This document shows positions 3,351 through 36,752 of a DNA stretch of 64,000 bases, in pieces (position 1 is the first letter of the stretch; the number at the start of each line of letters is the position of its first letter). The translations under genes were made by a program, and so were the position numbers. Origin of the DNA: a virus (Duplodnaviria > Heunggongvirae > Uroviricota > Caudoviricetes); the IMG/VR virus record IMGVR_UViG_3300030055_000004. One strand, 5' to 3'. The notes beneath the pieces are model-generated. The model was given only the letters and a program-made list of their open reading frames with translations, made no database searches and was not told where the DNA came from.

Positions 3351-4099
3351 TATTCTTTATTTTGTGTTAATGAGGGATAAATATTTTCCCAGAATGTTTT
3401 AATACCTCCATCTTCTTGTCTTTGAGCAAGTAAGATAGTTTTTCCTGCAAGATGTGGCATTCTAGCACCGCATAATACAGAATTCATATCTCCAAAATTA
3501 GCCATTAAATCTGTAGTTTCTATGTCTCTATAAACATAACAAATTGCATCACTTCCAGCACTTAAAATACGACCAATTTTTCCTGTAAGATCTAAATCTT
3601 TTACATTTAATTCAGTACCATTTTCATTTAATGCTTTATCTTTAACATGCCCTACTAAAATAACATTTGGAGAGACTTTTTCAAACCAACCAATAACTCT
3701 TTGCATTGCTTGTCTTAAATACAAATAACCTGCACCATTAGCTAATGTTAATACACTTGTTTCTGCATCAAAATTAACACCCATAGAGGTTTCTCTATAT
3801 AATTTATTTGCATATGGAAGAACTATATCTTCTAATGCGGTAATAGTATCTAAAATTGTAAAATCAAATTGTCCTGGATTGTCTTTCAACTCCATTGCAA
3901 TTTTATACAAATCCATATACGTTTTAGCTTTATATGTAAAAGCTGAGATATAATCTGTCCCATCTTCAAGGTCAATATGAAGAGCTTTAGGAAGGAACGA
4001 TAATGCTGTTGTTTTTCCGACTTTTGGTAAACCAAAAAGTATTAAATTTTTTGGATTTGAAGTTTTAATTTGGCTTTTAGCCATTGGTAATAATCCCAT
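3350..4099 (-). CDS. RecA-like / Sak4-like ssDNA-annealing ATPase
   Basis: 249 aa. Walker A motif GLPKVGKTT near the N-terminus; the size matches phage Sak4-type RecA-fold proteins. Confidence 0.5.
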   Translation of the reverse strand: MGLLPMAKSQIKTSNPKNLILFGLPKVGKTTALSFLPKALHIDLEDGTDYISAFTYKAKTYMDLYKIAMELKDNPGQFDFTILDTITALEDIVLPYANKLYRETSMGVNFDAETSVLTLANGAGYLYLRQAMQRVIGWFEKVSPNVILVGHVKDKALNENGTELNVKDLDLTGKIGRILSAGSDAICYVYRDIETTDLMANFGDMNSVLCGARMPHLAGKTILLAQRQEDGGIKTFWENIYPSLTQNKE

Positions 4100-4101
4100 T
4101 T

Positions 4102-5190
4102 TTATAATTGAAATTGATGTTTTATTTCATCTATTTGTGTCTCCACATGTTCTGTATCATCTATTTTATGTTCTATTTTAGGAGCTTTTAACTCTAAATA
4201 AGGTTCATAATCGCCAATTTCTTTAGCTTTTGGCATTTCTCTAAACATTCCTATTTCTCCAAAAAACGAAGTTCCAAGGTTTAGGTCAGCTTGTCCATAC
4301 CGATTTTTCAGGATTTGCGTTAATCTAAAGCGTTTTTTCAATACATTCTGTATTGGGTAACCTTCACATGTAGCTATCTTTTCTCTATAAGGAAAATAGA
4401 GAGCTAATACGACTTCCGAACCATCTGTAGTTCCTGAAGTGTCTTTAAAATCATCTAATTGAATAAGCTCATATCCATTAGTTTTACGATCCATCCCTTT
4501 TGCATTACGATTTAATTGTTGTATAAATACACCAGTTAGACCGCACTTATTTCTAAGATAAATAAAAGTATCAACAACTGTATCAATTCTTATTTTTTTA
4601 GCATCACTTCCAGAAATTAATCCAACATGATCAATAAGAACTATTTTATATCTAGATGGATCATCACTAATATAATTTTCAGTATGTTCATCTACTTGTA
4701 CAAATGTGCCAAATTGACTTAACCAGTTTACACAAGTTTTATAAATTCCATTTGGTGTTAATGCTTTATCAAAAATAGTTAAATGCTCTGAAAGAGTTTC
4801 TACCCATCCTCTAGCTAAATTAACTAAATTTTCTTGAGAATCTGAAATTGGTTTAGTCAAAGATAAAATATCTTCATAAGTTACAATTTCATGATATTCA
4901 TCCCAGATATATCGTGAGATTAATTTAGCATATAGTACATCAGCAGCCATTTCAAATGAATAATATAAAATAGATATAGGTATATTTTCAGCATTCTTAA
5001 TTAAATTATATACAAATACATCTAATGCAAATGAAGTTTTACCCCCAGAAGTATCAGCACCAATTGTGTATAAATATGATTTTTGAATACCATAAATAAC
5101 GGAATCTAATTTAGGCATTCCTGTTGAAATTCCAACATTCTTACCCTCCTTACCACGTTTTACGTTTTTGTATAATTTATTAACTCCCAT
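4102..5190 (-). CDS. DnaB-like replicative DNA helicase (RecA-fold C-terminal domain)
   Basis: 362 aa. Contains MPKLDSV...GADTSGGKTSFAL (Walker A) and a downstream ...LIDHVGLI... motif typical of the DnaB family. Confidence 0.7.
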   Translation of the reverse strand: MGVNKLYKNVKRGKEGKNVGISTGMPKLDSVIYGIQKSYLYTIGADTSGGKTSFALDVFVYNLIKNAENIPISILYYSFEMAADVLYAKLISRYIWDEYHEIVTYEDILSLTKPISDSQENLVNLARGWVETLSEHLTIFDKALTPNGIYKTCVNWLSQFGTFVQVDEHTENYISDDPSRYKIVLIDHVGLISGSDAKKIRIDTVVDTFIYLRNKCGLTGVFIQQLNRNAKGMDRKTNGYELIQLDDFKDTSGTTDGSEVVLALYFPYREKIATCEGYPIQNVLKKRFRLTQILKNRYGQADLNLGTSFFGEIGMFREMPKAKEIGDYEPYLELKAPKIEHKIDDTEHVETQIDEIKHQFQL

Positions 5191-5191
5191 A

Positions 5192-5800
5192 TTATAACAA
5201 TTCAGAATTATTATAACCGTTAATATTATCAGACAATTTTAGTTCTTCAATTTCTAACCATTTCATACTAATTACAAACTCTGTAATACCATAATGGATA
5301 AGATCATTTTCTTTTCCAAAAGTTAATAATTCCATAATTTTAGCATGCATTTCTGGATTAAATTTAATAGCTTTGCCATAAGCAAAACAAAAATCATCCA
5401 TACTCTTAAATAGTTTACTAATGTTCTTTAATGAACACTGACGACCTTGAATATTTACAAAACTTGGATAAGTCATAAATAATTCCATTCCCATATCCCC
5501 AGAATGTTGATTGAAGGATTTTAGAAATACTTTATTAAAATCTACATCACGTGGATTAAATGTTGCTCCTTTTTCAGGAATTTTATAGGATTTATTAATA
5601 ATTCCTTTTTCCTGTAAGGCTAAGAGAGTATCTCGTGGAGCACCTTTTAGAGGCATTTGACTAAAATATTTGCTTAAATATTCACTATGATCTTCCTGTG
5701 CTAAAAATATTAATTGAATAATTAAAAATTCTTCAGGAAATAGTTGGTACTTAATCATAAAGTCAAGTTCTCTATCTATTGATAATTCTATTTGTTTCAA
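5192..5800 (-). CDS. hypothetical protein
   Basis: 202 aa ORF. Confidence 0.3.
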   Translation of the reverse strand: MKQIELSIDRELDFMIKYQLFPEEFLIIQLIFLAQEDHSEYLSKYFSQMPLKGAPRDTLLALQEKGIINKSYKIPEKGATFNPRDVDFNKVFLKSFNQHSGDMGMELFMTYPSFVNIQGRQCSLKNISKLFKSMDDFCFAYGKAIKFNPEMHAKIMELLTFGKENDLIHYGITEFVISMKWLEIEELKLSDNINGYNNSELL

Positions 5801-5849: not shown

Positions 5850-6191
5850 TTACTGTCCCCAGTGATTTAATTGTTTTAATCTTGTTATTACATCATTAGG
5901 TGTATGCCCATCAAATTTATCAGCTAATTCATATTCTGGAATTTTAAATAAATCCCAATCTTTATCTTCATAATGATTACTAATTTGTCCAGAAGGTAAT
6001 GTAGCCATTACTATAAACCAACCACCTCCAAAACATAATTCTCCATCGCTATGTTTCCAAGATTTATGTACATTATATTTAGGAATATCATATTGAGCCC
6101 ATTCATTAAATAATGCTGCATTATACACTTTTCTAAAGTCATATAACTCTCCAAATGTATGATAACCATCTGATATTAAGTTTGTATCCAT
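5850..6191 (-). CDS. hypothetical protein
   Basis: 113 aa ORF. Confidence 0.25.
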   Translation of the reverse strand: MDTNLISDGYHTFGELYDFRKVYNAALFNEWAQYDIPKYNVHKSWKHSDGELCFGGGWFIVMATLPSGQISNHYEDKDWDLFKIPEYELADKFDGHTPNDVITRLKQLNHWGQ

Positions 6192-6196
6192 ATTAA

Positions 6197-6616
6197 TTAT
6201 TTTAATTGTTGCCTTATAGATTCTAATATTAATCCTAATTTATTTAAACCAGTACCTTTACATTTACCCCAATATCTATCATTCCAAGTATTACCTTCAA
6301 TTAATTGACATGTTCCCGTATTTAATAATTTAGTTTTTAAATCTGGATTTTGAGTAAATTTAGCAAGAACTATTCTGTACATTAATAAATCTTTTACTTT
6401 CTCCCAATCAGCTCTAAGATTTACTTTTCTACCTTTGGCTTTAGCAAGATTTGGAGATAAGAATATAAATTCTTTTTGAATAGTTTTATCTAATACTTTT
6501 TGAGCTTGAAAAGCTGCTTCATTATTAGCGTATTCTACTCCTTCAAATACCACAGGAGTTTCATAAAAGTTACTTAAAAAATAATATTCTCCTCGAAATT
6601 CATTTATACTATACAT
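6197..6616 (-). CDS. NADAR (YbiA-like, DUF1768) domain protein
   Basis: 139 aa. Contains FLSNFYETPVVFEGVEYANNEAAFQAQK, a close match to the NADAR/YbiA signature. Confidence 0.6.
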   Translation of the reverse strand: MYSINEFRGEYYFLSNFYETPVVFEGVEYANNEAAFQAQKVLDKTIQKEFIFLSPNLAKAKGRKVNLRADWEKVKDLLMYRIVLAKFTQNPDLKTKLLNTGTCQLIEGNTWNDRYWGKCKGTGLNKLGLILESIRQQLK

Positions 6617-6866
6617 ATTTTGCTAAATACTCGCCATCTTCAATGAAAAAACCTAAAGATGTTAAATCCATAATATCTTCATCTGTAATATCTGCATCAA
6701 TTAAATTATCAAGATCTTCACTCCAAATCATATCATGATTCGCACCTTGAACAACATAATTTGAATATTTAGCTATAATAGATAAACCGATAAATGTATT
6801 ATTCATTTCGGCTACATAATCAGTTTTTGCATTTTCAAATACTTCTATAATTTCTTTTTTTGTCAT
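6609..6866 (-). CDS. hypothetical protein
   Basis: 85 aa ORF. Confidence 0.2.
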   Translation of the reverse strand: MTKKEIIEVFENAKTDYVAEMNNTFIGLSIIAKYSNYVVQGANHDMIWSEDLDNLIDADITDEDIMDLTSLGFFIEDGEYLAKYV

Positions 6867-6867
6867 A

Positions 6868-7851
6868 TTAAAATGTAAATAAAAATTGTTGTTTTTCTTG
6901 TACTACTTCTTGTTTTACTAATTCTTGATTCGTTAAGATATTCATTAGTTCATTTTCATTTATTTCGAAATGACTTAAACCAACTGAACTCTTTTTAAAC
7001 CAATTTTCTTCCATTGTTCCTCTTAGAATTAATGAAAATACTTCAGCATTTTTATTAGCTTCTTTTCTAATAATCCTACCAATTCTCTGTATTCTTTCAG
7101 TTGAAGAGCTACTATTAGATAAAATAATACCTAAATTTAATTTTGGAATATCCGCACCTGCATTTAATACTTTACTAGTATGAACTACTCCAGTATCTTG
7201 CAAACAAAATTCTTCCATTGTAATTTTATTCTTCTTTTTAGTTTTACCTGAATGCACTACTAAACCTACTTTAAATTTTTCACATTGTGCAATAGTTGCA
7301 TTAAATGTAATAGCTTTAGAATCAGGTCTATGTGCTAGAATTAATTCTGCAATTTCAATTTTCTTAGGATGATTTTTTACAAACTCCTTACGTGCTTTCA
7401 ATGCCCTACCCCATGCAAATGCATGAGCAGCAGTTTCAGCTATAATTTGTTTTTCAAATTTTGGATCAGGCTGAATAAATTTAGCATATGCTTTTATACA
7501 TTGTCTACTAGTTAATATTAATTCAGTACCTTTTCTAATACCAGCCATACAACCCATTGCTGTGTTGAACTGATAATCAAAAAATGCAAAATGTTCCATA
7601 AATTCTAAATTAGCTGCATTATATTCAGTTAAATCAACATCAATCATTACTTTGTATTCCTTATAAGGAGATACCCAACCTTTTGCAGTTGCTTCTTTGA
7701 CTGTAATAGTATCAATAATAGGACAATATTTAGCTAATAATGTTTGCTTACCATCTAATCTTTCAAATGTTGCTGTTAATCCTAATATCATTTTAGGTTT
7801 ACATACATCAAATATAGTATAAAATGATTCAGCAGCATACGCATGAACTTC
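6868..7851 (-). CDS. SF2 DEVH-box DNA helicase, exon 2 (C-terminal part)
   Basis: Begins EVHAYAA... (completing the DEVH motif II), then contains GLTAT (motif III) and QRIGRIIR (motif VI). Joining it to exon 1 restores ...LLILD|EVHAY.... Confidence 0.6.
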   Translation of the reverse strand, partial: EVHAYAAESFYTIFDVCKPKMILGLTATFERLDGKQTLLAKYCPIIDTITVKEATAKGWVSPYKEYKVMIDVDLTEYNAANLEFMEHFAFFDYQFNTAMGCMAGIRKGTELILTSRQCIKAYAKFIQPDPKFEKQIIAETAAHAFAWGRALKARKEFVKNHPKKIEIAELILAHRPDSKAITFNATIAQCEKFKVGLVVHSGKTKKKNKITMEEFCLQDTGVVHTSKVLNAGADIPKLNLGIILSNSSSSTERIQRIGRIIRKEANKNAEVFSLILRGTMEENWFKKSSVGLSHFEINENELMNILTNQELVKQEVVQEKQQFLFTF

Positions 7852-9149
7852 CATGCTATCCTATAATTTTCACTATAAGTCCGACTATATCTTAATTTTT
7901 GTGTTTTTTATTAAATATGTATTATTTTTTGTTTTTGTGTTATTACGAATTTGATTACTAATAGTACAATCCTTTAAATTAAAATAAAGAGCTGCTTCAA
8001 CATTAGTTTTAAATTTATTTAAAATAGACCCAATTGAATCTATTTCAAAAATTTTAAAAGTATTATCAAAATAATCAGTAAAATCTAGTATAGGACTAAG
8101 ACTCCAAAAAGAATTTTTCCACATAGTTTTATTTTTAATAGCTGTATCTAAACTACCAGCATTGGAATCTCCACTATTTAAAAATTCAGATATAACATCC
8201 CTTTTACTTAAAAATACTTTTATTAATTTAAAAGTATCTTTATTATATTGATAATGTTTAAAACCCTTACTTTCTTTAGTAGTTTTTGTAGGTATAAGTT
8301 CATAATTTTTATTTAAAAAATCAGATTCATATAACCAAAAATACCCACCAGCTGTATTTGATCTTTTTTTTAAAACATTGTTAATTGCACCGGAACTTGA
8401 AAAATTATGTTCATTAGAGGCTTTTACAATTGAATCATATGTTTTAATATAATTACCTAGTAAATCTAATTGTACAATTTTTATTTCGTGCGCAGAAATA
8501 GATCTTTGAATTCCCGAAATAACTCTTTTTTCTTTTGTAATAGATCCTCTACCACCTTTATCAATATTTAAAAGTTTATATCCTAATTCTTTATATTTTT
8601 GAATAAGGTCTATTTCTAGATTTTCCCATTCTGTAACATCGCATTCATCAATTTGTGTAATAATGACATTTTCATTTTTTAACATTAAACTGTAAATCCA
8701 TTTTGCAACAGGAGTAACCCTTTTTAAAGGATTTTTTCCAGTATATTTATGTTGTGATAATCTGCTTTTTAAAGTGCAACTTGTTACTCCAACATATCTA
8801 ACATCTTGCAAATTTGATTCACTACTTAATGTATAAAATACATATTTTTTAATTTTTTCTTGCATATTTTTAATTTTTAATAATATGCAAAGATAGCAAA
8901 AATTTTCGCCATTTCCAAATGAATTCCAAAATATTTTGAAATTTAAATGTACTCCCTTACGGGATAGTCTGTGAACCTTTTTCCAAAATTTATTTGGAAA
9001 CTTGGATGCGGATTGACCAATTCTTTTTGATTTTACCATATCTTTCATCATTACTGAAAGCCATTATATGTATTACTACTATAATTTGGTTAAAAAGACT
9101 CTAAGGTTATTCCCGCAGTTAAACGAATTTAGACTCGACAAAGTTACTA
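7852..9149 (-). mobile_element. putative group I intron carrying a GIY-YIG homing endonuclease gene
   Basis: About 1298 nt inserted exactly between the D and E codons of the helicase DEVH motif. The 5' exon ends in T (U), the insert ends in G immediately before GAA GTT CAT, and the insert encodes a GIY-YIG ORF. Removing it restores the helicase reading frame perfectly. Confidence 0.55.
7885..9051 (-). CDS. GIY-YIG homing endonuclease (intron-encoded)
   Basis: Contains KYVFYTLSSESNLQDVRYVGVTSCTLKSRLSQHK, a GIY-YIG motif. The true start is probably the internal Met at about 8865 (MQEKIKKYVFYTL), because the motif is normally N-terminal. Confidence 0.6.
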   Translation of the reverse strand: MMKDMVKSKRIGQSASKFPNKFWKKVHRLSRKGVHLNFKIFWNSFGNGENFCYLCILLKIKNMQEKIKKYVFYTLSSESNLQDVRYVGVTSCTLKSRLSQHKYTGKNPLKRVTPVAKWIYSLMLKNENVIITQIDECDVTEWENLEIDLIQKYKELGYKLLNIDKGGRGSITKEKRVISGIQRSISAHEIKIVQLDLLGNYIKTYDSIVKASNEHNFSSSGAINNVLKKRSNTAGGYFWLYESDFLNKNYELIPTKTTKESKGFKHYQYNKDTFKLIKVFLSKRDVISEFLNSGDSNAGSLDTAIKNKTMWKNSFWSLSPILDFTDYFDNTFKIFEIDSIGSILNKFKTNVEAALYFNLKDCTISNQIRNNTKTKNNTYLIKNTKIKI

Positions 9150-9446
9150 ATCGAGTATTAAGAGATCACAAAAAAAAGGTTGTTTTATTGCAGAATTAAT
9201 AATTTTAACTTCTGCATTAAAACTTAATCCTTTTTTATCTAATATAGATATCCACTGACCTCTTAAATAATCAGTAGGTACAATTACTATAATTTTTTTT
9301 CTTGGATTTTTTACAATAAATCTGTTGATAGCAATAATTGCTGCTGTAGTTTTTCCAAATCCAGTGCAAAATTCCCAGGTTCCATTACATCTATTTTTAA
9401 TCCATTTTTCTACAGCTTCTAGCTGTCTATCATCTCTACTACTCAT
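9150..9446 (-). CDS. SF2 DEVH-box DNA helicase, exon 1 (N-terminal part)
   Basis: Contains CTGFGKTTAAI (motif I, Walker A) and ends ...CDLLILD (first half of motif II), followed by a TAG that lies in the insert. Confidence 0.6.
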
Positions 9447-10161
9447 TACTTATATAATTAATTATGTTTTTAGAAAACAAAATTAATTGTTCTTCTGTTG
9501 CTGAATTTTTCATTGAATTTGCTAACATTGAAATTACTTGAACATTTCCAACAATATAACCTTTAGAATTATTAATTCTATCTAAAGAATAAGTTTTAGA
9601 ATAATCATCTTTTGTTCCTTTAATTAATTCAATTCCTAAAATTGGACAATGTGTAGGAAGTATAATATCTTCTTTTACTAAATTAAAATCTAAATTATTT
9701 TTTTTAGCTCTTTTTTTAGCAGCAGATAACATATGAGTTATTATACCATTTTCTGTATTTAAATAATCATTACTTATTTTATTTAAATAATCATTATATT
9801 CAGAATCTTCTTTTCGTTTTATATTTTTATTATCATTACATGTTTCAATATATTTTTGTCTGTTAGGATGTTCTAATACTATTTGTCTTTCACATTCTTT
9901 ACATCTTGAATATATTTTATTTTTTCCATCTTTATTTTTAGCACTTAAAATATAAAAATTTTCTAATAATAATATTTTTTTACAATTGGTACATTGTTTA
10001 TGTCCTTCTGGAATATCTACTGTTTCTTTAGGTATATATTCTCTTCCAGCTTTTTCAGCTCTTTTTTTACTTTCCTCTTTATTTTTACATTTGGAACATT
10101 TATGATTACTATAAAACTTAGTTTCTGTATCATTTTTTCCACAAATTGTGCATACTTTCAT
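9439..10161 (-). CDS. HNH homing endonuclease (free-standing)
   Basis: 240 aa. N-terminal Cys-rich zinc-finger region (CTICG...CSKCK; CTNCK), and a C-terminal HCPILGIEL...YSLDRINNSKGYIVGNVQVIS HNH_3-type motif. Confidence 0.6.
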   Translation of the reverse strand: MKVCTICGKNDTETKFYSNHKCSKCKNKEESKKRAEKAGREYIPKETVDIPEGHKQCTNCKKILLLENFYILSAKNKDGKNKIYSRCKECERQIVLEHPNRQKYIETCNDNKNIKRKEDSEYNDYLNKISNDYLNTENGIITHMLSAAKKRAKKNNLDFNLVKEDIILPTHCPILGIELIKGTKDDYSKTYSLDRINNSKGYIVGNVQVISMLANSMKNSATEEQLILFSKNIINYISNE

Positions 10162-13992: not shown

Positions 13993-14332
13993 TGCTTTCT
14001 GTTTTTAAACTTGCATCATAAACTAATTCATAATCTTCCCACTCTTCATCAGTTCCTTCAAATAAAGAAATTGAACTTGAATAATAATCATATTCTTGAT
14101 TTTCTGCAATACTAATCATTTCATCAGTATAATCTTCACCTTCTTCAAGTTGTTCTGCAAATAAATCGGATAAAACCTGCTCAAAACCACTAAAATCTGC
14201 AAAATTATTATAAGATAATTCTTCAGCAAGATTAAGTAAATCAATTTCATCTTCAGCTATTGCCGCATAATCATTATATTCACCACACCAAGCAGTTTCA
14301 ACATGAATTATATATTTATTAAAATTTTTCAT
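13979..14332 (-). CDS. hypothetical acidic protein
   Basis: 117 aa, very rich in Asp, Glu and Tyr. Confidence 0.25.
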   Translation of the reverse strand: MKNFNKYIIHVETAWCGEYNDYAAIAEDEIDLLNLAEELSYNNFADFSGFEQVLSDLFAEQLEEGEDYTDEMISIAENQEYDYYSSSISLFEGTDEEWEDYELVYDASLKTESNGVD

Positions 14333-14741
14333 TGTATTTATTATAAAAATTTGTTATAATTTTGCCACCTACTGGATTTTCACGTAAAGAATCACGTAAA
14401 ATTGCTTCTTCTAATTTAATAGGAAATTGTTTATATTCAATGTTAATTTCATATATTGAAGCAAATTTAATCCATTTATTTAAATATGTTTGATTTAAAT
14501 TAGTAGCATCTAATACTACAGTATAACCTGCTGTTAGTCCTTCTATAACACAATTAGTTTCTATATAAGTAACTAAATTTTCTCGTTGTGGAACCCAATA
14601 TTTACCTAGCATATTTCGTATATCATCCCTATTAACTCTTACTCGAGTTAAAGGGGATTCTAGTACAAATTGTTTAGCCCACGTTGATTTTCCTGAAGCA
14701 GGAATACCTTGGGTTAATATTAATTTTTGAACTTCTTGCAT
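14319..14741 (-). CDS. polynucleotide 5'-kinase (T4 Pnk kinase-domain-like, no phosphatase domain)
   Basis: 140 aa. LTQGIPASGKSTWAKQF...VNRDDIR closely matches the T4 Pnk N-terminal P-loop kinase signature. Confidence 0.65.
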   Translation of the reverse strand: MQEVQKLILTQGIPASGKSTWAKQFVLESPLTRVRVNRDDIRNMLGKYWVPQRENLVTYIETNCVIEGLTAGYTVVLDATNLNQTYLNKWIKFASIYEINIEYKQFPIKLEEAILRDSLRENPVGGKIITNFYNKYNEKF

Positions 14742-14972
14742 ATTATAATTGTTCTACAACTGCAGTACAAATATCTTCTACTAAAGTAGTAAGAGTGTTA
14801 CAATTATTTCCATCATAATCACATATTTCTGACCCATTATTTTCAAATTTAATAAAATCATTTAATTCATCTAAAGAAGTTATTTTAATATTTATAGAAA
14901 TTTCAATTGGATTGAATTTTATTTTTGAAACATTTATAGTCTTTTCCATTATTTTATTTTTTTATTTAGTAA

Positions 14973-16277
14973 TTAATTCTCAGATTCTATATCAATAATA
15001 TTTTTATCTAGATTTTTACTCTCCATTTCATAAAAACCAAAAGATTTACATTTATATGCTTCGAATTCATTTTTTTCAATTCTTATTACAACTCCTTCTT
15101 CTACAACTTTATTCTTACAAATATAACAATCTTTTTCATTATACATTTCCTTTAAAACACTTAAGAAATCTTCCATGTTTTCTGGATTTTGTACTGATAG
15201 TTCAGCATATCTAAACATAAAATCAAATACACTTCCATAATACAATTCTGGTACAGCCAAAAGACCTTTTTCTTTACAGAAATCTTGTACTTGGTGAGCA
15301 CTGAATTCAAATACTTTTCCAGATGGATTAGTATAAGTTATACGATAGATTCTGATTTCAAATTTACCCTCTTCTTGACCATAATCAAATGGACCTTGGA
15401 TATATCCACCAGAAGGTAAAAATCCTACTATTTCATAATAGAAAGTCATCCCATCAGATAAGAACTCTTTAACCATTTCATGAGCTTTACCCCATATATC
15501 TGTATCATAGAAATGAACAGCATTAGGATTTAAATCTGGATTCTTAATAACTTTACGTGAACTATAAATATAGTCATAATGTGTATCAACTACTTTTATA
15601 AATTTACTAGCAAGTTTTTCAAACCAATTTAAAGGTTTCTTACATAGAATTTTAGCAGAAATACCAGAAGTACCATGCATTTTATATGTAATAGAAATTA
15701 AATCATGAGGATGAATCTTATGTAAATTTTTATATAATATAGAAGTATCATCATGAAATCTAAATTGATTTTCAATTAATTTTGATTCCCTTGCTAATTT
15801 TCCTTTACCTTTTTTACTATTAGGTGTACCTTGTATTTTATTAGTTTTAATAACATATTTAGAACAAATTGGAACTTTTTGATATTCATCAAATGATCCA
15901 CCAATTGTCGGAAGTTCTGCAGCATATCCTTTAGTAATAAACTCTAAAGAATTCAAAGGCATATATAATCCTTCAGATTTATGTCCTCTAAATTTTACAC
16001 ACTTAATACGTCCATTTTCTTCAAAATAACCTTTTTTAGTAGAATCTTTATTTAATTCTGCTTTTTTATATAAGTTATTAGCACTAAGATATTCTTTTGA
16101 TAAGGCTGTTTCAACTGGAAAATATAATCCCATTTCATTCATATGTACATCTAATCCAACAACTACTTGGTTTCCCATTATAATTGTGGCCTGTACTTTA
16201 TCACATCCATCAAGAGGGACGAGTGCAATAATTTTTACTACAACTGCTGCATAGTTTTCATTTATAGGTTTATTCAT
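14973..16277 (-). CDS. ATP-dependent RNA ligase (nucleotidyltransferase superfamily)
   Basis: 434 aa. Motif I KMHGTS (KxHG), motif IV EGVVIR, motif V KCKS. It has an N-terminal extra domain and lies immediately downstream of the kinase gene. Confidence 0.6.
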   Translation of the reverse strand: MNKPINENYAAVVVKIIALVPLDGCDKVQATIIMGNQVVVGLDVHMNEMGLYFPVETALSKEYLSANNLYKKAELNKDSTKKGYFEENGRIKCVKFRGHKSEGLYMPLNSLEFITKGYAAELPTIGGSFDEYQKVPICSKYVIKTNKIQGTPNSKKGKGKLARESKLIENQFRFHDDTSILYKNLHKIHPHDLISITYKMHGTSGISAKILCKKPLNWFEKLASKFIKVVDTHYDYIYSSRKVIKNPDLNPNAVHFYDTDIWGKAHEMVKEFLSDGMTFYYEIVGFLPSGGYIQGPFDYGQEEGKFEIRIYRITYTNPSGKVFEFSAHQVQDFCKEKGLLAVPELYYGSVFDFMFRYAELSVQNPENMEDFLSVLKEMYNEKDCYICKNKVVEEGVVIRIEKNEFEAYKCKSFGFYEMESKNLDKNIIDIESEN

Positions 16278-19166: not shown

Positions 19167-20957
19167 TTATATTTTATTTAAATTAACATTTGAATGTCTA
19201 ACTGTAACATTTCCAGTACTTGTTTGATTCATACAACCAAACCAAATATAATCTCCTACTGCAACATTTACTATCCCAGATGATGACATTCCAGAATAAT
19301 CTGTTGATGTTTGAAATCTTCTAGATGCTACAATATTATCTAATGACGTTGCATTTTGAAATAATTCAAACTTAAATGTATCTGTGGAATTTGATGGGAA
19401 TGCTGTAACACTAAATGCTAAAACATATGCTGCATTTGAACCTGGATTAACCTGTAGAGTACTTCCCCTACTAACTGATCCTGTTCTAGTTGACGTAAAT
19501 GCATGTGTAATATAATATGAATTTATAGTTACAAATGTTACAGTATAAACTCCATTATAATCTACTGTACCAACCTGAGTTACTGGTTCTCCTGTAAGTA
19601 AATTATGTGGTGTTGTAGTTGTTATTAATACTGTACCAGGAATTGTTCCACTATAATTGGCTACACTTGCTATTGAAGCACTTGCTCCAATTTTAAATGT
19701 AAATCCAAGTAATGAACCAGCACCAAAATTATTAATAGAATGATAAAGATTTATATTAGTTATATTAGTTGCAATAGCATTTTCATATTGATACATTTCT
19801 CCATACAATACTTGCGTACCATTAATTCATTCAGTTCCATTATATCTAAGTACCTGATCAAAGACAGGAGCTGTAATTGTTACATCACTTAATCCAGTCA
19901 ATTCATTATTTAATATAACTCTTACAAATAAAGTTCCTGCTGTAGCACTAATAACACCAACTCTACCAACTCTAATTACATATTGTAATGGATCAGTTGG
20001 TGGAGTCATAGTTAGTCCTCCAGCTACTGTAGGACTTAAATATACATTAGCTCCAGATACAAAACCTAAAGTATTTAAATTATGTACTACACCAATATTA
20101 GTAATTAAACCAGTATCTCCAGGTAAAATATCCTGAGTAGCAACCCCAAGAACTGTGGATGTAGCTTCTGATGTTGCAATAGCTAAAGATATAGTACTAG
20201 TATCACTTACAAGACCAGTAGAATAAACCACTTGACCATTAAGAATAGTTGAACCTGTATTATTAAAACATAATACTGTTGTTTCTTGACCTATTTGTAA
20301 TGTAACATTTCCTGCAATCATTATAGCTGCTGTTTTATTAGGAGCATCATAATATAATCTTCCTTGGTCAAATGGACCAACAAGTGGTGCATTTCCAAGT
20401 TTAATTCCTTCATTAAAAGTTGGATAACCATTAATAATTGTTTGTGGTACTGTTTGATCTAATGTTAAATATGATCCTATATTTGCTTTTAATTGTAATT
20501 GATCATATAATAATTTAGCACTTGGATATTGTACATCTGTTGATGCACCTGAAATAGAAACAACTTTATTAGATATATCTTCTTTTCCTGCAATAGCTGC
20601 ACTAGTTATATAACCAACATCATTTGTAAATGCTGATATTAAAGTTGGAATAGCAGCACTTGTTATAAAGCCACTATCATTTGTTAATTGTGATGTTAAA
20701 GTGGGTATAATAGGTTTACCAGTTAAACTGGCATAAGTTCCTAAAGTAGCTACAGGAGCTAATATAGGTTTATTAAGTATTTCTGCTACTCCAGAAATGG
20801 CATTTCAATCTGAATTTACTTGAACTCCTCCAGAGCCAAGATTTAAATCATTTACAAATTGACTAAGAAAAGTAGGTCTATTGATTACATTTAATCAATT
20901 AATTTTTTCTCCACCTAATCCTAGTAAAGTTATGTAGTTGGGGGTTTCTTGTGTCAT
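19167..20957 (-). CDS. tail fibre protein whose frame contains three in-frame TGA codons (read as Trp)
   Basis: ATG at 20957, TAA at 19167-19169, about 597 codons. Repeated tail-fibre motifs LSQFVNDLNLG, SQLTNDSGFIT and SAFTNDVGYIT; rich in Thr, Ser, Gly, Asn and Val. In-frame TGA at 20895-20897 (EKIN-W-LNV), 20805-20807 (VNSD-W-NAISG) and 19827-19829 (NGTE-W-INGT). Confidence 0.6.
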
Positions 20958-21183
20958 AATATATAGTATAAAAAAAGGAGGGATATAAATATCTCTCCTT
21001 TTTAAGGTTGTTACTTAGTTAAAAGTTTCATAATTTCTGATTCTGTACAAACGTATGAATCCATTATATCTGCTGTAGCTTTACCAAGTGTATCATAATA
21101 AAATTTACGTATTTTCATACGTTCTTCATTTAATACTAAGTCAATAACTTTAGTAAAACTAATTTTCATATATTCTTCTTCCA

Positions 21184-21483
21184 TTACGATACTTTATTAG
21201 TTTCGTAGATTGCTACTGCTCCACCTGCTGCTGAAGCTATTGCCATGAATGATGCTACTGAATTAGTAACAAATGCATCTCCGGCTGCTGCTGTTGCTGT
21301 TGCTGGTGTTAATAACATTTCATAATCAGTTGCACTAACTACAGTAAAAGAACCTGAAATAGGAATTTTTTTAATATAAATAGTTTGTGTTGCTGATGTA
21401 TTTTGGATTTGAAGACTAGCTCTACTAGTATTAATAGGAGCTACTACTACGGATGTTGTTCCAACTACTAAAGGACTTGCCAT
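21184..21483 (-). CDS. hypothetical structural-like protein (Ala/Thr/Ser-rich)
   Basis: 99 aa with low-complexity composition, inside the structural block. Confidence 0.3.
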   Translation of the reverse strand: MASPLVVGTTSVVVAPINTSRASLQIQNTSATQTIYIKKIPISGSFTVVSATDYEMLLTPATATAAAGDAFVTNSVASFMAIASAAGGAVAIYETNKVS

Positions 21484-21499
21484 AATTTTAAGTTTTTTT

Positions 21500-21529
21500 A
21501 AAAAATAGGGGAGATTTTACTTCCCCTAT
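21500..21529 (-). terminator. rho-independent terminator downstream of the Gly-rich structural gene
   Basis: Stem ATAGGGGAG / CTTCCCCTAT. On the minus strand it is followed by UUUUUAAAAAAA. Confidence 0.5.
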
Positions 21530-21536
21530 CTTAAAA

Positions 21537-22340
21537 TTAGACAATAGTAGTTCCTGTTACTGTTGGATGAATATGAGTTAAGATTGAACTTAACAGATAT
21601 TGATTTTGAGCATTGTTACTAACTTGATTGTTAGCAGCAGCTAATTGATCTCTTAAATTTTGTACATTTAAGTCATTAATTAATGAACGTGTTGCATTTC
21701 CGTCAGAATTAATTAATGATTTAATTTCACAGCAACATTGAGCCATTGCAGCAGCATTTGCAGTTCCTTGAGCTATAATTTGATTAGTAGCATTTTGTGT
21801 TTGCATTGCAGCTCCATTAAAACCTTGTAACGTTGTAGTTGTTAGGTTATTAAATGAATTCAATTGTTGTAATGCATTTTGATTACTTTGTGCAGTAATG
21901 TCACGACCTAAATCATTAATTCCTTGTAAAGTAGTAAAAGCTGATGTAGCTTGTGCTGTTGATAAATTAGCTACAGAATTTAGAATATTTGCAGCTCCAC
22001 CATCTATTGCTGAATTAACTCTACGAAATTCACTATTTAAGATACTATTTAAGTCACCAGAAGCAACTTGAGATCCTAAATTAGTAATTTGTGATTGTAA
22101 TGATTGAAATGCTGGATTAAGAACTACATCAGTTGCTACTGCTGTTGCTGCTGGAGCTACATATCCTGCTCCATATCCTCCACCTCAACCACCACGTCCA
22201 CCAAGTAATCCACCTGCTAACGCTCCACCTAATAATCCGGCGATTCCCCCGCCTAAAATTCCACCTCCTGTGCCTAAAGCGGCTCCTGAAGTTCCTGTTC
22301 CTCCCATTGCTGGGATCATGCCATCTAATGTAAGTGCCAT
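21537..22340 (-). CDS. glycine-rich structural-type protein with one in-frame TGA (read as Trp)
   Basis: ATG at 22340. The N-terminus is Gly-rich (GGTGTSGAALGTGGGILGGGIAG...). In-frame TGA at 22185-22187 (GGRGG-W-GGGYGAGY). It continues into the 21537..21863 ORF without a frame change, about 268 codons. Confidence 0.5.
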
Positions 22341-23219: not shown

Positions 23220-23777
23220 CTAAGAATTATGAATTTTAACATCCATATCTTTCATTAACTCTTTAACATCATTCCATGAATAAACTTTAAATTCATCATT
23301 ATCAATACCAACATCTTTACGTCTATAAAACATATTTAAATCAGTATAATCTAATCTATGATGATTATGTCCATGTAAATGATAACTTCTTTTTCTATCC
23401 ATCTCTAACCATTCTTCAAATGGGTGATGTGATAAAATTAATAATTTTTTATCTATTTCTAATTCAAGTATTAATTGTACTGAACTAAATAGATCTTGTA
23501 ATTTGATATGACTAAATCCTTCAAAACGTTTAGTATAATCTTCTAAGATATTTAATTTCTCAAGCAAATATCTTTCATCAGCAGGAATTTTAATTTCCTT
23601 GTTTTTCTTTATATGTTCATCGTGATTACCAAGGATTAAATGTATATTCTTACAGTTAATTCTCTTCCTAAAATTCCATATATTATCTATTCCATTGAAA
23701 CTCCAATCACCTAAGTGATAAAGAGTATCATCTTCCATAACTACTGAGTTTATTGCATGAACAATACCATCGTTCAT
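23220..23777 (-). CDS. calcineurin-like metallophosphoesterase
   Basis: LGDW, LILGNHDE and LHGHNHH motifs (GDxx, GNHD/E, GHxH). Confidence 0.5.
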   Translation of the reverse strand: MNDGIVHAINSVVMEDDTLYHLGDWSFNGIDNIWNFRKRINCKNIHLILGNHDEHIKKNKEIKIPADERYLLEKLNILEDYTKRFEGFSHIKLQDLFSSVQLILELEIDKKLLILSHHPFEEWLEMDRKRSYHLHGHNHHRLDYTDLNMFYRRKDVGIDNDEFKVYSWNDVKELMKDMDVKIHNS

Positions 23778-23942
23778 TGCTTCTATTGATGGAAAATCTC
23801 GACATGAGATATCTGCATCATCCCAAGTAGTTACAGCTTTACATATGTTTATGTGCCCATAATGTGTTTACTACGTGTCCGAGGTAAACCATACATTATG
23901 TATAGTACCCTCGGACACCTTTTCTTTATTTTTATTCATAAT

Positions 23943-24943: not shown

Positions 24944-25654
24944 TCATTTTGTAATTGTTATATAAAAAGGTTCATATATAGGTTGATAATTTTCATTTTT
25001 AATAGATACATTAACAACTTTGCCACCATTAAATTCAAATATATTATGATCCCCACTATGGATATGACCACAAACTAACAATTTAAATTTAGTTTTAGCT
25101 AATTGTTTTGCTAATGGTGGATTTCCTACAGATTCAGGAGTTCCTCTATTCCATCTTGTACTTTCAAGTATTTGATCAACTTTACCAATATTATAAGGAG
25201 GATCATGTGAAATAATTATATCACATTCTTCTGGAATAGCTAAAAATTTCTTTTCCATATATAAATCTTCTCTCATAAAAGGCCAACTACCAAATATATG
25301 ACAATAAGGAGTTCCAAATATTCTAAATTCTTCTCCATCATGTCTATGAATAATATAATTGTTTTCTAAATAAATTAGTTTAAAATCACATTGTTCTTTT
25401 AACGCTGCAATATTTAAAGAATTAATTCCTTCAAAATAAGCATCATGATTTCCAGCTATTAGATATACTTTATCTACAGGTAGAGATTTAATCCAATAAG
25501 CAAATTCAGTTTCTAACCATTTTTTAATTTCTGGTTTATTAAATTGAATATTTAAAGGACTTATATCTCCTGCAATCAGCATTATATCAGCAGATTCAAT
25601 AATTTCTGGTAAATAACCATGAAGATCACTAATTGCTACTATTTTCAATCCCAT
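24944..25654 (-). CDS. calcineurin-like metallophosphoesterase (possible 2',3'-phosphoesterase end-healing enzyme)
   Basis: 236 aa with SDLHG, AGDIS, AGNHD and CGHIHSGDH motifs. Confidence 0.6.
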   Translation of the reverse strand: MGLKIVAISDLHGYLPEIIESADIMLIAGDISPLNIQFNKPEIKKWLETEFAYWIKSLPVDKVYLIAGNHDAYFEGINSLNIAALKEQCDFKLIYLENNYIIHRHDGEEFRIFGTPYCHIFGSWPFMREDLYMEKKFLAIPEECDIIISHDPPYNIGKVDQILESTRWNRGTPESVGNPPLAKQLAKTKFKLLVCGHIHSGDHNIFEFNGGKVVNVSIKNENYQPIYEPFYITITK

Positions 25655-26436: not shown

Positions 26437-26811
26437 TTATTTTAAATATTTAAATACTAAATTAATAAATAATACTAAAAAAGTAGCAATAAATGCTTCA
26501 GGATACATTTGAAGTCCAACTAATGCTCCTAATGCTGCACCACACCAAACTGTTGCTGCTGTTGTTAAACCTATAATCTGATTTCCAGATTTAAAGATAA
26601 TACCAGCACCAAGAAAACCAATTCCAGTTACAATTTGACCTATAATCCTAGTAGGATCTGAATTAATAAAATGAATTGACATACAAGTAAAGAGTGTAGA
26701 ACCAAGGCAAATTAATGACATGGTTCTAACTCCTACTGCTTTATGATGTTGTTGTCTTTCCAACCCTATTAATAGACCTAGAAAAACAGATATTATCATT
26801 GGTACAATCAT
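26437..26811 (-). CDS. MgtC/SapB family membrane protein
   Basis: 124 aa. Contains GLLIGLERQQHHKAVGVRTMSLICLGSTLF, the MgtC signature. Confidence 0.6.
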   Translation of the reverse strand: MIVPMIISVFLGLLIGLERQQHHKAVGVRTMSLICLGSTLFTCMSIHFINSDPTRIIGQIVTGIGFLGAGIIFKSGNQIIGLTTAATVWCGAALGALVGLQMYPEAFIATFLVLFINLVFKYLK

Positions 26812-27350
26812 TACTTTTTATAGTTTACAATTGTAACATCGCAATTTTGTAATTCTTCTTGAATTATTTCTTTGATAATGTCCCAATTACCACCAGCCAA
26901 ACCACAACCAATTTTAGGGAGACCAATATGCTTACCTGCAAAAATATAATTCATTTTACGCATACATAAAGTTATTGCTTCATAATCAACAGGAGCTCCA
27001 CCAGAAGTCCCATATCGACATTGTGTATAAGCATTAACAACAGAAAAAGTTTTTAAATCAGTCCATTGTTTGAATTGATTTCTTACTTTACTATGCGAAA
27101 ATAATTTAGTTTCACCTAAATCATGTTTAGATAAAGTAAATGTATCATAATCAATTTGACCAAGTTTATTTACATCACCTTTGTACTCCATATCTTCTAA
27201 AGGAAATGTATTACACTCAAAAGTATTTTTCATTTCCACAGCAATACCAGCACCCATTATACAATAACAATTGCAGCCATGAGCGATTACATCAAACTCA
27301 CCTTGTAAGGCAAGTTTGATTAAATCACCATCTATTTCTTTATATGTCAT
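26811..27350 (-). CDS. macro domain protein (ADP-ribose binding/processing)
   Basis: 179 aa. GDLIKLALQGEFDVIAHGCNC...MGAGIAVEM and IGLPKIGCGLAGGNW match the macro-domain GDIT...DAIVNAAN...GGGV and IAFPaIstGvyG motifs. Confidence 0.5.
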   Translation of the reverse strand: MTYKEIDGDLIKLALQGEFDVIAHGCNCYCIMGAGIAVEMKNTFECNTFPLEDMEYKGDVNKLGQIDYDTFTLSKHDLGETKLFSHSKVRNQFKQWTDLKTFSVVNAYTQCRYGTSGGAPVDYEAITLCMRKMNYIFAGKHIGLPKIGCGLAGGNWDIIKEIIQEELQNCDVTIVNYKK

Positions 27351-28774
27351 TATTTTTTATTTAAAGCAATTTGTAAATATTCATCAGCAATTTTACGTAT
27401 TTCAGTAAATTTTTGATCATTAAATAATTCTCCATTTTTATAAACTACTTGTAATTCATCTATATAAGGATTATTTTCACCAAATTGTTCAGTAGAACTT
27501 TGAATTGTCATAAATCCATTACCAGCTTTATGTAATTTTAATAATCCTGCTTTACTTGCTTTAGTCATATCTGATTTTGGAGTTTTTTGTACATTAATAG
27601 ATTTACCTTCAATTTCAACATGTGAAACCTTTACAGCCCACCTATCAGTATCTCTACATAAACCATCTGTATGTAATCCACCACCAGAACCAGTATTAAA
27701 ATTTTCACAAGACCAACCTGTTTTAATATATTCTTCATAAATTTTAGGTATACTTTTTTCATTCATTCCATCACCTTGAAGTAAACCGACATTATGATTA
27801 ATCACTTTGTAGTCTTTATGATTTAAATGATACCCAAAAAGATTACCTAATTGTTCAGAATATTTAATTACATTAGTTAAAGGATCATTACTATCAGGAC
27901 GAGGTATAACTCTACCAGGTCTATCAATAATTTTCTGTTTAACTTCTGGGTCACCGAGTACATTTTTAATAAAACCATCAGCATCATAACTATCCATTAC
28001 AATACTAATTGGTAAATGTGGTTCAGCACGTTCTAACTGTGCTAACACATAATCAATTTCACCACGACCTTGACCCCATACAGTTGCTACTGAATGTTCA
28101 GTTGCCCACACAGATTGACCAATATTATTATCAGTATAGTATTCTTCAATACCTTCCATTGCTGGAAGATTATCACTACCATTAGAGAATATTAACATAG
28201 CCATTCCACCTAATACTGCTCCCTCACGATAAACAGCACCACGTAATCCAAAATCATTCACTGCAAATGCTAAATCTGGCTTATCACAAGTCATATTAAA
28301 ATAAGGAAGAATCCCTTTTTTAATATTGAATAAACGAGTTGCTACACCAGACGATTGCCAATTCCACATTAAATAATCTTCAAAATGACTAACCATACAA
28401 GCAAACCAAGGTTCAGTTGATACAATAGTGAAACAAACATTACCTGTTGGAAGAACTGTGCCTTCTTTAACACATTTAATTTCCAATGGGAAATAACCTA
28501 ATTTTTTAACTTTTTCCCAAATTTCTTTAGGAAAGTATTTATCAGTACCAAAGACACGTTTGCATCTTGCAGCACCTCTTTCAATATTTTCCTGTGTTAC
28601 TTTCTGCATGAAATATTCTTTAAGAATATATTGCATCCCAAAGAAACAAATTTCTGCATGTTGTCCACCCTTACGAGCTTCACCATATGAATAAAAATGA
28701 TTAATTCCAGCTGGACGTTGTAACCAATGAGTTATTTTATAAGCATCAGTATCTATTACACTATTTTTCCACAT
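27350..28774 (-). CDS. nadV: nicotinamide phosphoribosyltransferase
   Basis: 474 aa. N-terminal TDAYKITHW, then FGLRG; full-length similarity in pattern to NAMPT/NadV. Confidence 0.8.
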   Translation of the reverse strand: MWKNSVIDTDAYKITHWLQRPAGINHFYSYGEARKGGQHAEICFFGMQYILKEYFMQKVTQENIERGAARCKRVFGTDKYFPKEIWEKVKKLGYFPLEIKCVKEGTVLPTGNVCFTIVSTEPWFACMVSHFEDYLMWNWQSSGVATRLFNIKKGILPYFNMTCDKPDLAFAVNDFGLRGAVYREGAVLGGMAMLIFSNGSDNLPAMEGIEEYYTDNNIGQSVWATEHSVATVWGQGRGEIDYVLAQLERAEPHLPISIVMDSYDADGFIKNVLGDPEVKQKIIDRPGRVIPRPDSNDPLTNVIKYSEQLGNLFGYHLNHKDYKVINHNVGLLQGDGMNEKSIPKIYEEYIKTGWSCENFNTGSGGGLHTDGLCRDTDRWAVKVSHVEIEGKSINVQKTPKSDMTKASKAGLLKLHKAGNGFMTIQSSTEQFGENNPYIDELQVVYKNGELFNDQKFTEIRKIADEYLQIALNKK

Positions 28775-28951
28775 ATCTCTTATTTATTTTTTTAAATATT
28801 TATTTATTTTCTTCTACAAATTCTCCAATAATATATTCTGTACGAATTTTACCTACTACTTCGGCTTCACATGAACCACGAGGACAGCATTTAAATTCTT
28901 GGCATCTAGGACACCAAATTAAATCCGTTTCTTTTGTTGGTATATCAGGTA

Positions 28952-29374: not shown

Positions 29375-29588
29375 ACTATTAAATTTTAGTACAAGAACAA
29401 GTTGCTTTGTTCAAAGCATAAGAACTAGTTCTAAATCTATCTTCTGGATCTGGGATTGCTTTTAAAGAAAAATCAGTTGTATTTACATGGTATCCTTTAG
29501 ATTTCAAATGATATGCAATTATTTCTTTAATATCTGCAACACTTAAATTAATAGTTACTATTTCGCTAATTTCCATATTAGATATTTT

Positions 29589-35409: not shown

Positions 35410-35462
35410 TTTATATTTTTATTGTACCCGGGCCGAGAATCAAACTCGGATTTGAACGTTAG

Positions 35463-35535: not shown

Positions 35536-35538
35536 ATA

Positions 35539-36315: not shown

Positions 36316-36318
36316 ATT

Positions 36319-36738: not shown

Positions 36739-36752
36739 ATTATTAATTTTTG

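Follow-up and report, generated by a model that had tools for sequence, protein, structure and literature searches.

Which enzyme would clean the 3′ end of a cleaved RNA in a phage whose polynucleotide kinase lacks a phosphatase domain? The question is raised by a 64,000 nt stretch of DNA from a virus of the Caudoviricetes (IMG/VR record IMGVR_UViG_3300030055_000004), hereafter the window. A preliminary description had recognised in it a kinase related to that of phage T4 Pnk (14319..14741), a neighbouring RNA ligase (14973..16277) and two calcineurin-like phosphoesterases (23220..23777 and 24944..25654), one of which was proposed to take over the healing of 3′ ends. All four open reading frames (ORFs) are present at these coordinates on the (−) strand. 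We call the family of the 23220.. phosphoesterase, which is aq_1665-like, MPE1, and that of the MPPED2-like phosphoesterase at 24944..25654, MPE2. On the whole we find it rather likely that the window encodes a phage system for the repair of RNA breaks by healing and sealing, composed of separate genes, with predicted enzymatic activities, a predicted RNA substrate and a predicted role for MPE1. A ribonuclease cut, most plausibly in a tRNA, would leave a 5′-OH and a 2′,3′-cyclic phosphate or 3′-phosphate end; the 140 aa T4-type kinase would phosphorylate the 5′-OH, an Rnl5-like ligase would seal the 3′-OH/5′-PO4 nick in a base-paired context, and the 3′ end would most likely be cleaned by MPE1 (23220..23939), possibly helped by MPE2. 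The most interesting result lies slightly outside the coordinates originally given and is a conserved coding gap within the MPE1 gene.

The kinase gene (14319..14741, (−) strand) encodes a predicted stand-alone 5′-OH polynucleotide kinase of the T4 Pnk kinase-domain type, with the motifs GIPASGKST and NRDDIR. In phmmer searches the protein matches T4 Pnk (PDB 1ly1; E = 1.7e-12) and Pnkp1 (4xrp; 4.5e-9), and its match to phrog_505 (3.5e-34) covers positions 2–143 of a 295-position bifunctional profile. The AlphaFold2 (AF2) model (pLDDT 91.3) has the T4 Pnkp kinase domain as its best Foldseek match and superimposes on 2ia5/1ly1 with a TMq of 0.85–0.86 and a root-mean-square deviation of 2.1–2.5 Å at 28–30% identity. 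In the T4 enzyme Lys15, Ser16, Asp35, Arg38, Asp85 and Arg126 are essential and Glu57 is important; Asp35 acts as the general base, Arg38 as a ligand of the acceptor phosphate and Arg126 as an NTP ligand, Asp85 is structural and Glu57 forms a salt bridge (PMC2831316). The positions of T4 K15, D35, R38, E57, D85 and R126 are occupied by K18, D39, R42, E54, D78 and R120, all invariant among 44 stand-alone homologs, and S19 (T4 S16) is nearly invariant (at least 90%). The P-loop GxxGxGKS reads G12-IPASGKS-19, with G12, S16, G17 and K18 invariant in the same homologs. Residue 140, the last of the protein, coincides with the end of the T4 kinase domain, and a C-terminal HAD (DxDxT) phosphatase domain is absent. 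Judged by sequence and model, the protein is a T4 Pnk-type kinase without the HAD phosphatase, just as had been proposed, and kinase activity can be predicted for it. Such proteins are common rather than unusual; 119 of the 120 best homologs measure 134–168 aa.

The ligase gene (14973..16277, (−) strand) encodes 434 aa and matches phrog_968 (‘RNA ligase’, 3e-59). An N-terminal OB domain (residues ~1–140, of which 12–108 are covered by Pfam PF21189, the PHA02142 OB domain) is followed by a disordered linker (147–162) and a nucleotidyltransferase domain, with motif I as K199-M-H-G-T-S, motif III at E282, motif IV as E393-EGVVIR and motif V as K409-C-K411-S. K199, E282, E393-E394-G395 and K409/K411 are invariant across 53 homologs. 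A sequence search of the PDB gave no useful match, and the assignment came from structure prediction and fold search. The top 13 Foldseek matches of the AF2 model (pLDDT 87.7) are all to the Naegleria Rnl5 enzyme NgrRnl, over the full length (E 6e-16 to 6e-14; TM normalised to the target 0.61–0.70), with T4 Rnl2 (2.7e-7), archaeal Rnl3 (5.5e-6) and T4 Rnl1 (1.4e-4) following. The model has the Rnl5 build, in which an N-terminal OB is joined to a nucleotidyltransferase domain and no other domain follows. The motif I form of Rnl5, KxDG, is replaced by K-M-H-G-T-S in the window ligase and its close relatives, the canonical K-L-D-G being present in other phrog_968 members such as that of locus L154; KxHGT is the motif I form of T4 Rnl2. 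The ligase is also ~95 residues longer than the characterised Rnl5 enzymes, and TIGR02306 (RNA_lig_DRB0094) reaches 18.4 bits against a cut-off of 151, with the OB region alone matching. On account of motif I, the extra length and the low TIGR02306 score we file it as Rnl5-like (phrog_968) and not as strict Rnl5.

The modelled protein is thus an RNA ligase of Rnl5 build with a predicted sealing activity. It is not a DNA ligase, and to this extent the preliminary description holds for both neighbours; the analogy drawn there with T4 Rnl1 has to be given up in favour of a nick-sealing, Rnl5-like type (1.4e-4 for Rnl1 versus ~1e-15 for Rnl5). Characterised Rnl5 enzymes seal 3′-OH/5′-PO4 nicks in which only the 3′-OH strand must be RNA. 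They are widespread, and the literature calls their physiological role uncharted. The family of the window ligase is large, with 2221 matches at E ≤ 1e-5. Hundreds of mycobacteriophage records list it under the annotation ‘RNA ligase’, and it occurs in Lak megaphage records too. The gene order differs from that first described, in which the kinase lay immediately upstream of the ligase: the ligase is transcribed first, followed by a 68 aa ORF (14743..14949, (−) strand; no family match above threshold) and then by the kinase. This small ORF is specific to the present phage; it was found only in the near-identical contigs L003–L005 and is absent in L006, the closest relative examined, where ligase and kinase are 15 nt apart (L-numbers are labels of the related viral loci or contigs compared with the window).

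Is the proximity of the two genes more than accidental? We compared 86 loci carrying a kinase homolog, 80 from IMG/VR and six others. A member of the ligase family lies ≤10 kb from the kinase in 47 of them, and the two are adjacent in L006, L075, L088, L092 and L106. With respect to the phosphatase, 36 loci have a kinase-HAD fusion of the T4 type, 16 a kinase-only gene with a stand-alone HAD resembling Gp60 of crAss001 nearby, usually directly adjoining the kinase, and 34, the window among them, a kinase-only gene with no HAD ≤10 kb away. The ligase accompanies the kinase within 10 kb in 33/36 fused, 14/34 HAD-less and 0/16 separate-HAD loci. Since it is found near the kinase in both the fused and the HAD-less group, the pairing is conserved across deep divergence and is beyond chance. 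A survey of jumbo phages has noted that RNA ligases accompany polynucleotide kinases and phosphoesterases, the phosphatase being usually a fused or stand-alone HAD, for which calcineurin-like and HD domains appear to substitute in a few phages (PMC7824862). The separate-gene architecture, first thought unusual, is common and has already been noted in general terms by comparative surveys.

No HAD phosphatase of either type was found in the window or from ~9 kb before to ~8.7 kb past it. The tblastn and phmmer queries were Gp60 of crAss001 and the HAD portion of Pnkp from L002; the HMMs also used were derived from the C-domains of 22 fused Pnkp proteins and from 15 proteins resembling Gp60. Another 30 ORFs of the window, scanned against PHROGs, gave no 2H, HD, HAD or other phosphoesterase. 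A role in end healing was weighed and rejected for a macro-domain protein (26811..27350) labelled ‘phosphatase’ in PHROGs; the protein sits with a NAMPT and an NMNAT-Nudix protein and fits NAD/ADP-ribose metabolism better.

The two metallophosphoesterases belong to different families. Compared with PDB sequences, the MPE1 family profile retrieves aq_1665 of Aquifex (1xm7) at 2.9e-24 and then GpdQ at 4e-4, and that of MPE2 retrieves mammalian MPPED2 (3rl4) at 5.5e-18 and then Dbr1 at 0.018. At E ≤ 10 neither profile retrieved CthPnkp, Pnkp1, lambda phosphatase, Mre11 or SbcD. The clustering with Mre11/SbcD or Ser/Thr phosphatases that would have spoken against an RNA end-healing role has thus not materialised; nor is either enzyme related by sequence to the phosphatase module of bacterial Pnkp, with which a parallel had been drawn. 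MPE2 (24944..25654, (−) strand) is, as described, an intact metallophosphoesterase of 236 aa (Pfam PF00149, 5.5e-15) with a complete set of motifs (D10-L-H12, G29-D30, G68-N-H-D71, H150 and G196-H-x-H199). Those of MPE1 are D21-T-H23, G74-D75, G101-N-H-D104, H168 and G187-H-x-H190, the D-x-H being formed only if the coding gap discussed below is skipped.

The evidence that ties MPE1 to the repair genes comes from other phages. In a sample of 80 diverse viral loci with an MPE1 protein 36–45% identical to that of the window (30 clusters at 70% identity), a Pnk-like P-loop kinase of 128–190 aa is encoded ≤1.5 kb away on the same strand in 38, and directly adjacent in 20. A phrog_968 ligase occurs ≤3 kb from MPE1 in 22 of the loci and together with the kinase in 13; after clustering, kinase, ligase and both are found in 13, 11 and 9 of the 30 clusters. 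Nearly all kinase matches in this sample (38/40) fall within 1.5 kb of MPE1, and none of the 38 MPE1-adjacent kinases carries a fused HAD. Some of these kinases are of the true T4 type (L162, L130). Compact groups of kinase, MPE1 and ligase genes are seen in L095, L106, L013, L118, L130, L160 and L162, among them the contiguous orders kinase-MPE1-ligase (L095) and ligase-kinase-MPE1 (L106); kinase and MPE1 adjoin in L013, and L118 has the order MPE1-orf-kinase-orf-ligase. We conclude that the MPE1 family is functionally tied to kinase and ligase, and that MPE1 is the best candidate for 3′ end healing, an activity that the gene neighbourhoods allow us to predict. MPE2, often a neighbour of MPE1 in relatives, lies ≤1.5 kb from it in 6/80 loci, with four-gene runs MPE2-MPE1-kinase-ligase in L131 and L144, and is a weaker, possibly auxiliary, candidate. 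The idea of a calcineurin-type 3′ healer can thus be retained for MPE1, through the neighbourhoods of other phages (38/80), and much less so for MPE2.

Three observations on these loci may be added. The MPE2 homolog of L092 (6794..8607) is split into pieces of 75 and 157 aa by a LAGLIDADG endonuclease ORF (7095..7934), probably an intron or the insertion of a free-standing homing endonuclease. The kinase gene of L095 may be interrupted by a mobile element too; its ORF comprises the C-terminal two-thirds only (1657..1995, within 819..1995), with a 236 aa endonuclease-like ORF (819..1529) ahead of it. In L013 an ORF (5980..6741) that by eye resembles a Thg1-type tRNA 5′-end repair polymerase lies ~3 kb upstream of the kinase-MPE1 pair and, if this likeness is confirmed, would add to the tRNA-repair context in a relative.

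Can the MPE1 gene of the window be expressed at all? The ORF 23220..23777 exists as described; it starts at an internal Met, however, and the gene to which it contributes the 3′ part is longer and begins with ATG at 23939, so that the DxH metal ligands lie outside the ORF. On the (−) strand the gene consists of a leader of 22 codons (MNKNKEKVSEGTIHNVWFTSDT, 23874..23939) whose last codon is Thr ACG, a 9 nt coding gap TAG TAA ACA (23865..23873) and a 3′ segment of 214 codons and stop (23220..23864; phrog_547 at 7.6e-27). The stop codons TAG TAA (23873..23868) fall inside the D-x-H motif, after which the frame resumes with HYGHINICK, and removal of the nine nucleotides restores motif I, S-D-T-H-Y-G-H, exactly. 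Full-length MPE1 can thus be made in this phage only if the gap with its two stops is skipped. Three independent assemblies agree letter for letter on leader and gap. Motif I is uninterrupted (...SD[TCP]HF.H...) in each of the 35 homologs that were aligned from kinase-bearing loci, and the window MPE1 keeps all 27 invariant columns of its family alignment.

The window gene is one of ten distinct interrupted alleles, the others being those of L092 (~9850..9920), L093 (~4390..4470), L095 (1957..2030), L097 (~5330..5410), L101 (~4080..4160), L106 (1049..1135), L111 (~70..150), L118 (7620..7700) and L197 (~5940..6030). In all ten a Thr codon, either ACG or ACT, is succeeded by TAG or TAA and a gap totalling 5, 6 or 9 nt, with the His codon beyond it. 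When the gap is excised exactly, motif I is whole again in each; the downstream frame differs among alleles. In the eight alleles with enough sequence this frame is open for 184–214 codons, and between the window and L097, which have the same 9 nt gap, dN/dS downstream of it is 0.10 at a dS of 0.33. The MPE1 frame is under purifying selection despite the gap.

A strong hairpin accompanies the interruption. In the window it is two-tiered (23875..23918) with a minimum free energy (MFE) of −28.3 kcal/mol. Nine alleles that were folded range from −18 to −28 kcal/mol (z −4 to −8.6), compared with −6.3 on average and −11.7 at the lowest for the corresponding region of 39 intact homologs, and the tenth allele, L197, has by eye the same stem arms. 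The 3′ arm is the sequence coding for T-S-D-T, and the hairpin ends 1–3 nt before the stop. One pair of the outer stem covaries between GC and AU, with synonymous changes on both sides (window versus L097 and L092), and the 5′ arm of this stem, TCCGAGG, is conserved as nucleotides although it is read as S-E-G or P-R depending on the allele. The inner stems differ in sequence among alleles and keep their pairing; loops and inner stems do not align, and RNAalifold recovered the outer stem only. The hairpin had no match in Rfam.

We tentatively suggest that expression of MPE1 involves programmed translational bypass of a class not described before, which would yield a fused product; to us this is a real possibility, somewhat short of an even chance. 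The ribosome would take off at the Thr codon before the stop, skip 5, 6 or 9 nt and resume at the His of DxH, the most likely route in the window being a hop from Thr ACG to ACA. Take-off and landing codons are ACG and ACA in two alleles, ACG and ACT in three, ACT and ACT in one, and ACG and GCT, ACT and GCA, ACG and ATG, and ACG and ATT in one each. All landing triplets fit [A/G][C/T]N, those of four alleles being non-Thr codons; tRNA-Thr(UGU), which the phage encodes, could pair anew with them, provided that G-U pairing is tolerated. The two-tier hairpin re-folding in the mRNA that leaves the ribosome may be what drives the hop, and pairing of the exiting mRNA has been proposed in the literature as a driver of forward bypassing. 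In the literature consulted, the T4 gene 60 family is the one documented case of natural programmed bypassing, other phage examples having the status of candidates. The MPE1 data would also agree with excision of the gap from the RNA. Neither reassignment or suppression of the stop codons nor a simple −1/+1 frameshift accounts for the gap, whose lengths of 5, 6 and 9 nt call for different frames; any read-through product would have a broken D-x-H spacing.

There are indications that the gap element is mobile. In L118 (6540..7700) a LAGLIDADG endonuclease gene (6739..7632) has on one side a displaced piece of the original MPE1 5′ end (MMSNIWFTSDTL, followed by a stop) and on the other the new leader, hairpin and gap. 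By analogy with T4 gene 60/MobA this suggests that the element moves as a cassette with a homing endonuclease. The L118 MPE1 is 87–96% identical to an intact relative, and that of L093 is like L092 just past the gap (91%) and like an intact gene elsewhere (77%). This mosaic identity points to lateral spread with co-conversion. A group I intron requires a G before its 3′ junction; there is none in L118 in the frame that restores the motif, and this explanation was discarded.

The setting in which these genes are found bears on their substrate. The window, of ~27% GC and with essentially all genes on the (−) strand, corresponds to roughly 67.7–131.7 kb of a 168 kb metagenomic contig that carries an exact copy of the ligase protein, as do several dozen other assemblies. 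The genes around kinase and ligase serve replication and nucleotide metabolism (DNA polymerase, helicase, primase, DnaB, ThyX). Also encoded in the window are an array of 19–20 tRNA genes with interspersed HNH endonuclease genes (35462..42496, (−) strand; ARAGORN, Rfam and PHROGs) and one further tRNA gene at 51261..51338, making 20–21 in total, a CCA-adding tRNA nucleotidyltransferase (44645..45376, (−) strand; Pfam PolyA_pol, phrog_24229 at 4.7e-60) and a phage-encoded tmRNA. The context is thus tRNA-centred, in keeping with the tRNA repair proposed in the preliminary description. The tmRNA (54594..55013, (−) strand) was recognised by Rfam (RF00023, 75.5 bits, E = 1.6e-27) and is not in the ARAGORN output. 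An extra tRNA at 42344..42416 rests on an Rfam match, the tRNA-His call at 37687..37774 overlaps a 91 aa ORF (37439..37714), and the HNH genes within and beside the array are located at 35539..39276, 44056..44595 and 61428..61988, all on the (−) strand.

The same setting provides the main rival for the kinase-ligase pair, namely that the two enzymes serve DNA replication and repair, sealing nicks that end in ribonucleotides (RNA primers or ribo-patches) and phosphorylating 5′-OH DNA, in which case no RNA 3′-phosphatase would be needed. The pair lies between ThyX and the genes for DNA polymerase, helicase and primase; Rnl5 needs RNA on the 3′-OH strand only, and loss of DraRnl, the founding Rnl5 enzyme, sensitises Deinococcus to radiation. 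The location in a replication block and the DNA-damage phenotype of DraRnl both weigh against an RNA repair system. The ligase gene is moreover within ~1.5 kb of an ATP-dependent DNA ligase gene in L002, L007 and L008, directly adjacent in L008, and searches of the window and its flanks yielded no DNA ligase. On the other hand, in most relatives the partner of the ligase is a complete T4-type Pnkp, the classical enzyme of RNA end healing; L002, which has the full-length Pnkp, carries a homolog of the CCA-adding enzyme between ligase and Pnkp, and the Thg1-like ORF, recognised by eye, occurs in the L013 block. Together with the heavy investment of the phage in tRNAs and its tmRNA, and with the T4 Pnk acceptor tunnel accepting single-stranded ends, this makes a DNA role appear improbable to us.

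Repair of RNA by kinase and ligase could also proceed without either phosphoesterase, MPE1 and MPE2 being unrelated enzymes of the early block, for example nucleotide or cyclic-nucleotide phosphodiesterases, and 3′ healing being left to the host or to another phage phosphatase. Several facts point this way and count against the role we assign to MPE1. By sequence family neither MPE is tied to the Pnkp phosphatase module or to known RNA end healers; among solved structures MPE2 comes closest to MPPED2, a weak cyclic-nucleotide phosphodiesterase. In the window neither gene adjoins the kinase, MPE1 being 8.5 kb and ~25 genes away, and many MPE1-adjacent kinases elsewhere are of the related phrog_2071 family and not of the strict T4 type. 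Phages of the crAss001 type use a separate HAD gene beside the kinase, and the remaining ~90 kb of the 168 kb contig could hold a HAD or other phosphatase. Of the 33 ligase-bearing loci with a fused HAD, 27 have MPE1 and 24 have MPE2 at a distance of 5–9 kb from the kinase, so that the arrangement is found in most relatives, compared with 9/14 each within 10 kb in the HAD-less ligase-bearing loci; the distribution is not complementary. As they are just as frequent in phages with a HAD-bearing Pnk, the two are not simple replacements of the HAD and may do something else. These equal frequencies at first seemed to refute a phosphatase role. For MPE1 it was restored by distance, with MPE1 ≤1.5 kb from the kinase in 4/15 kinase-only loci versus 0/28 fused-HAD loci, and by the sampling from the MPE1 side: tight kinase-MPE1-(ligase) operons recur in 13/30 MPE1 clusters, which would be hard to explain without a functional link, and fused HADs are lacking in all 38 neighbouring kinases. 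We therefore regard unrelated phosphoesterases as rather unlikely, albeit as an explanation that deserves weight. For the window itself the kinase-MPE1 link remains indirect, since the gene is both distant and interrupted. That MPE1 is simply dead here, the 9 nt being an insertion and the downstream ORF a decaying remnant, would account for two in-frame stops in a metal-binding motif and for the fact that the window protein is the most divergent in its alignment, with two extra insertions. Against this stand ten distinct alleles from independent data sets with the gap at exactly the same codon and open frames behind it, the retained invariant residues, the low dN/dS and a hairpin whose 5′ arm is conserved as nucleotides across reading frames; we consider a dead gene very unlikely.

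Other features of the window have no evident part in these arguments. A block at 26811..30482 ((−) strand) encodes the macro-domain protein mentioned above, which has a weak DarG-like match, a NAMPT (27350..28774, 474 aa) and an NMNAT-Nudix fusion (29589..30482, 297 aa), and a NADAR-domain protein is encoded apart from it (6197..6616, (−) strand); these have the appearance of counter-measures by which the phage would meet NAD depletion or ADP-ribosylation, and not of parts of RNA repair. A helicase gene (6868..9446, (−) strand) is apparently split into a 99 aa ResIII/DEAD piece (9147..9446) and a 328 aa Helicase_C piece (6868..7854), with a 388 aa ORF without family match between them (7885..9051); L006 has a single helicase of 426 aa, and the split may be due to an inserted mobile element. 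Between the ligase-kinase pair and the phosphoesterases runs a series of low-complexity ORFs rich in Gly, Ala, Thr and Ser (19167..22340, (−) strand), where the GC skew is locally reversed; none of these ORFs could be assigned to a family.

Taken together, the RNA healing-and-sealing reading describes a set of genes of a known general kind in an uncharacterised variant, with a stand-alone T4-type kinase and an Rnl5-like ligase, to which an aq_1665-type metallophosphoesterase probably belongs as well. The operon of these three that recurs in phages amounts to a concrete three-protein pathway that could be rebuilt in vitro. It would widen the counter-measures of phages against RNA-cleaving host defences beyond the T4 paradigm, and the role of MPE1, if true, would give a function to the structural-genomics orphan PDB 1xm7. 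The bypass, if true, would represent a second natural family of phage bypass elements, located within a gene of an RNA repair operon, and a short-gap element that exists in ten natural variants would be useful for studying how forward sliding is driven by mRNA that folds behind the ribosome.

The putative bypass recalls T4 gene 60/MobA in that a stop follows the take-off codon, a conserved mRNA structure lies 5′ of the take-off site and the gap interrupts a conserved enzyme gene, with the homing endonuclease and displaced 5′ gene remnant of L118 and the mosaic identities completing the likeness. It contrasts with gene 60 in the length of the gap (5–9 nt instead of 50 nt), in the gene concerned (a phosphoesterase instead of a topoisomerase), in a landing codon that is not always the same as the take-off codon and in having no homology to the gene 60 element. 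As for the repair enzymes, crAss001 Gp61 is a kinase-only homolog of 144 aa, 47% identical to the window kinase; crAss001 differs in its stand-alone HAD (Gp60) next to the kinase, and no Rnl5-like ligase or MPE1 was found within the 16 kb of it examined. The ligase shares with DraRnl and NgrRnl (Rnl5) the N-terminal OB and C-terminal nucleotidyltransferase domains and the absence of a C-terminal domain, but is ~95 residues longer and has KxHGT instead of KxDG in motif I. With T4 Pnkp and Rnl1/Rnl2, which heal and seal tRNAs in the face of anticodon nucleases of the PrrC type, the window system has in common the kinase fold and its catalytic residues, a predicted 5′ phosphorylation followed by ATP-dependent sealing, and the fact of being phage-encoded, while it differs in lacking the HAD domain, in the Rnl5 build of the ligase and in having a separate metallophosphoesterase as candidate phosphatase. 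The combination of a kinase, a binuclear metallophosphoesterase and a ligase is that of bacterial Pnkp (CthPnkp) and Pnkp1-Rnl-Hen1 (4xrp/4xru), from which the window differs in that its proteins are separate, its MPE1 belongs to another, aq_1665-like clade and no Hen1 methyltransferase is seen. The domains of CthPnkp are arranged in the order kinase-phosphatase-ligase, and it is this order that the gene arrangement kinase-MPE1-ligase of L095 mirrors.

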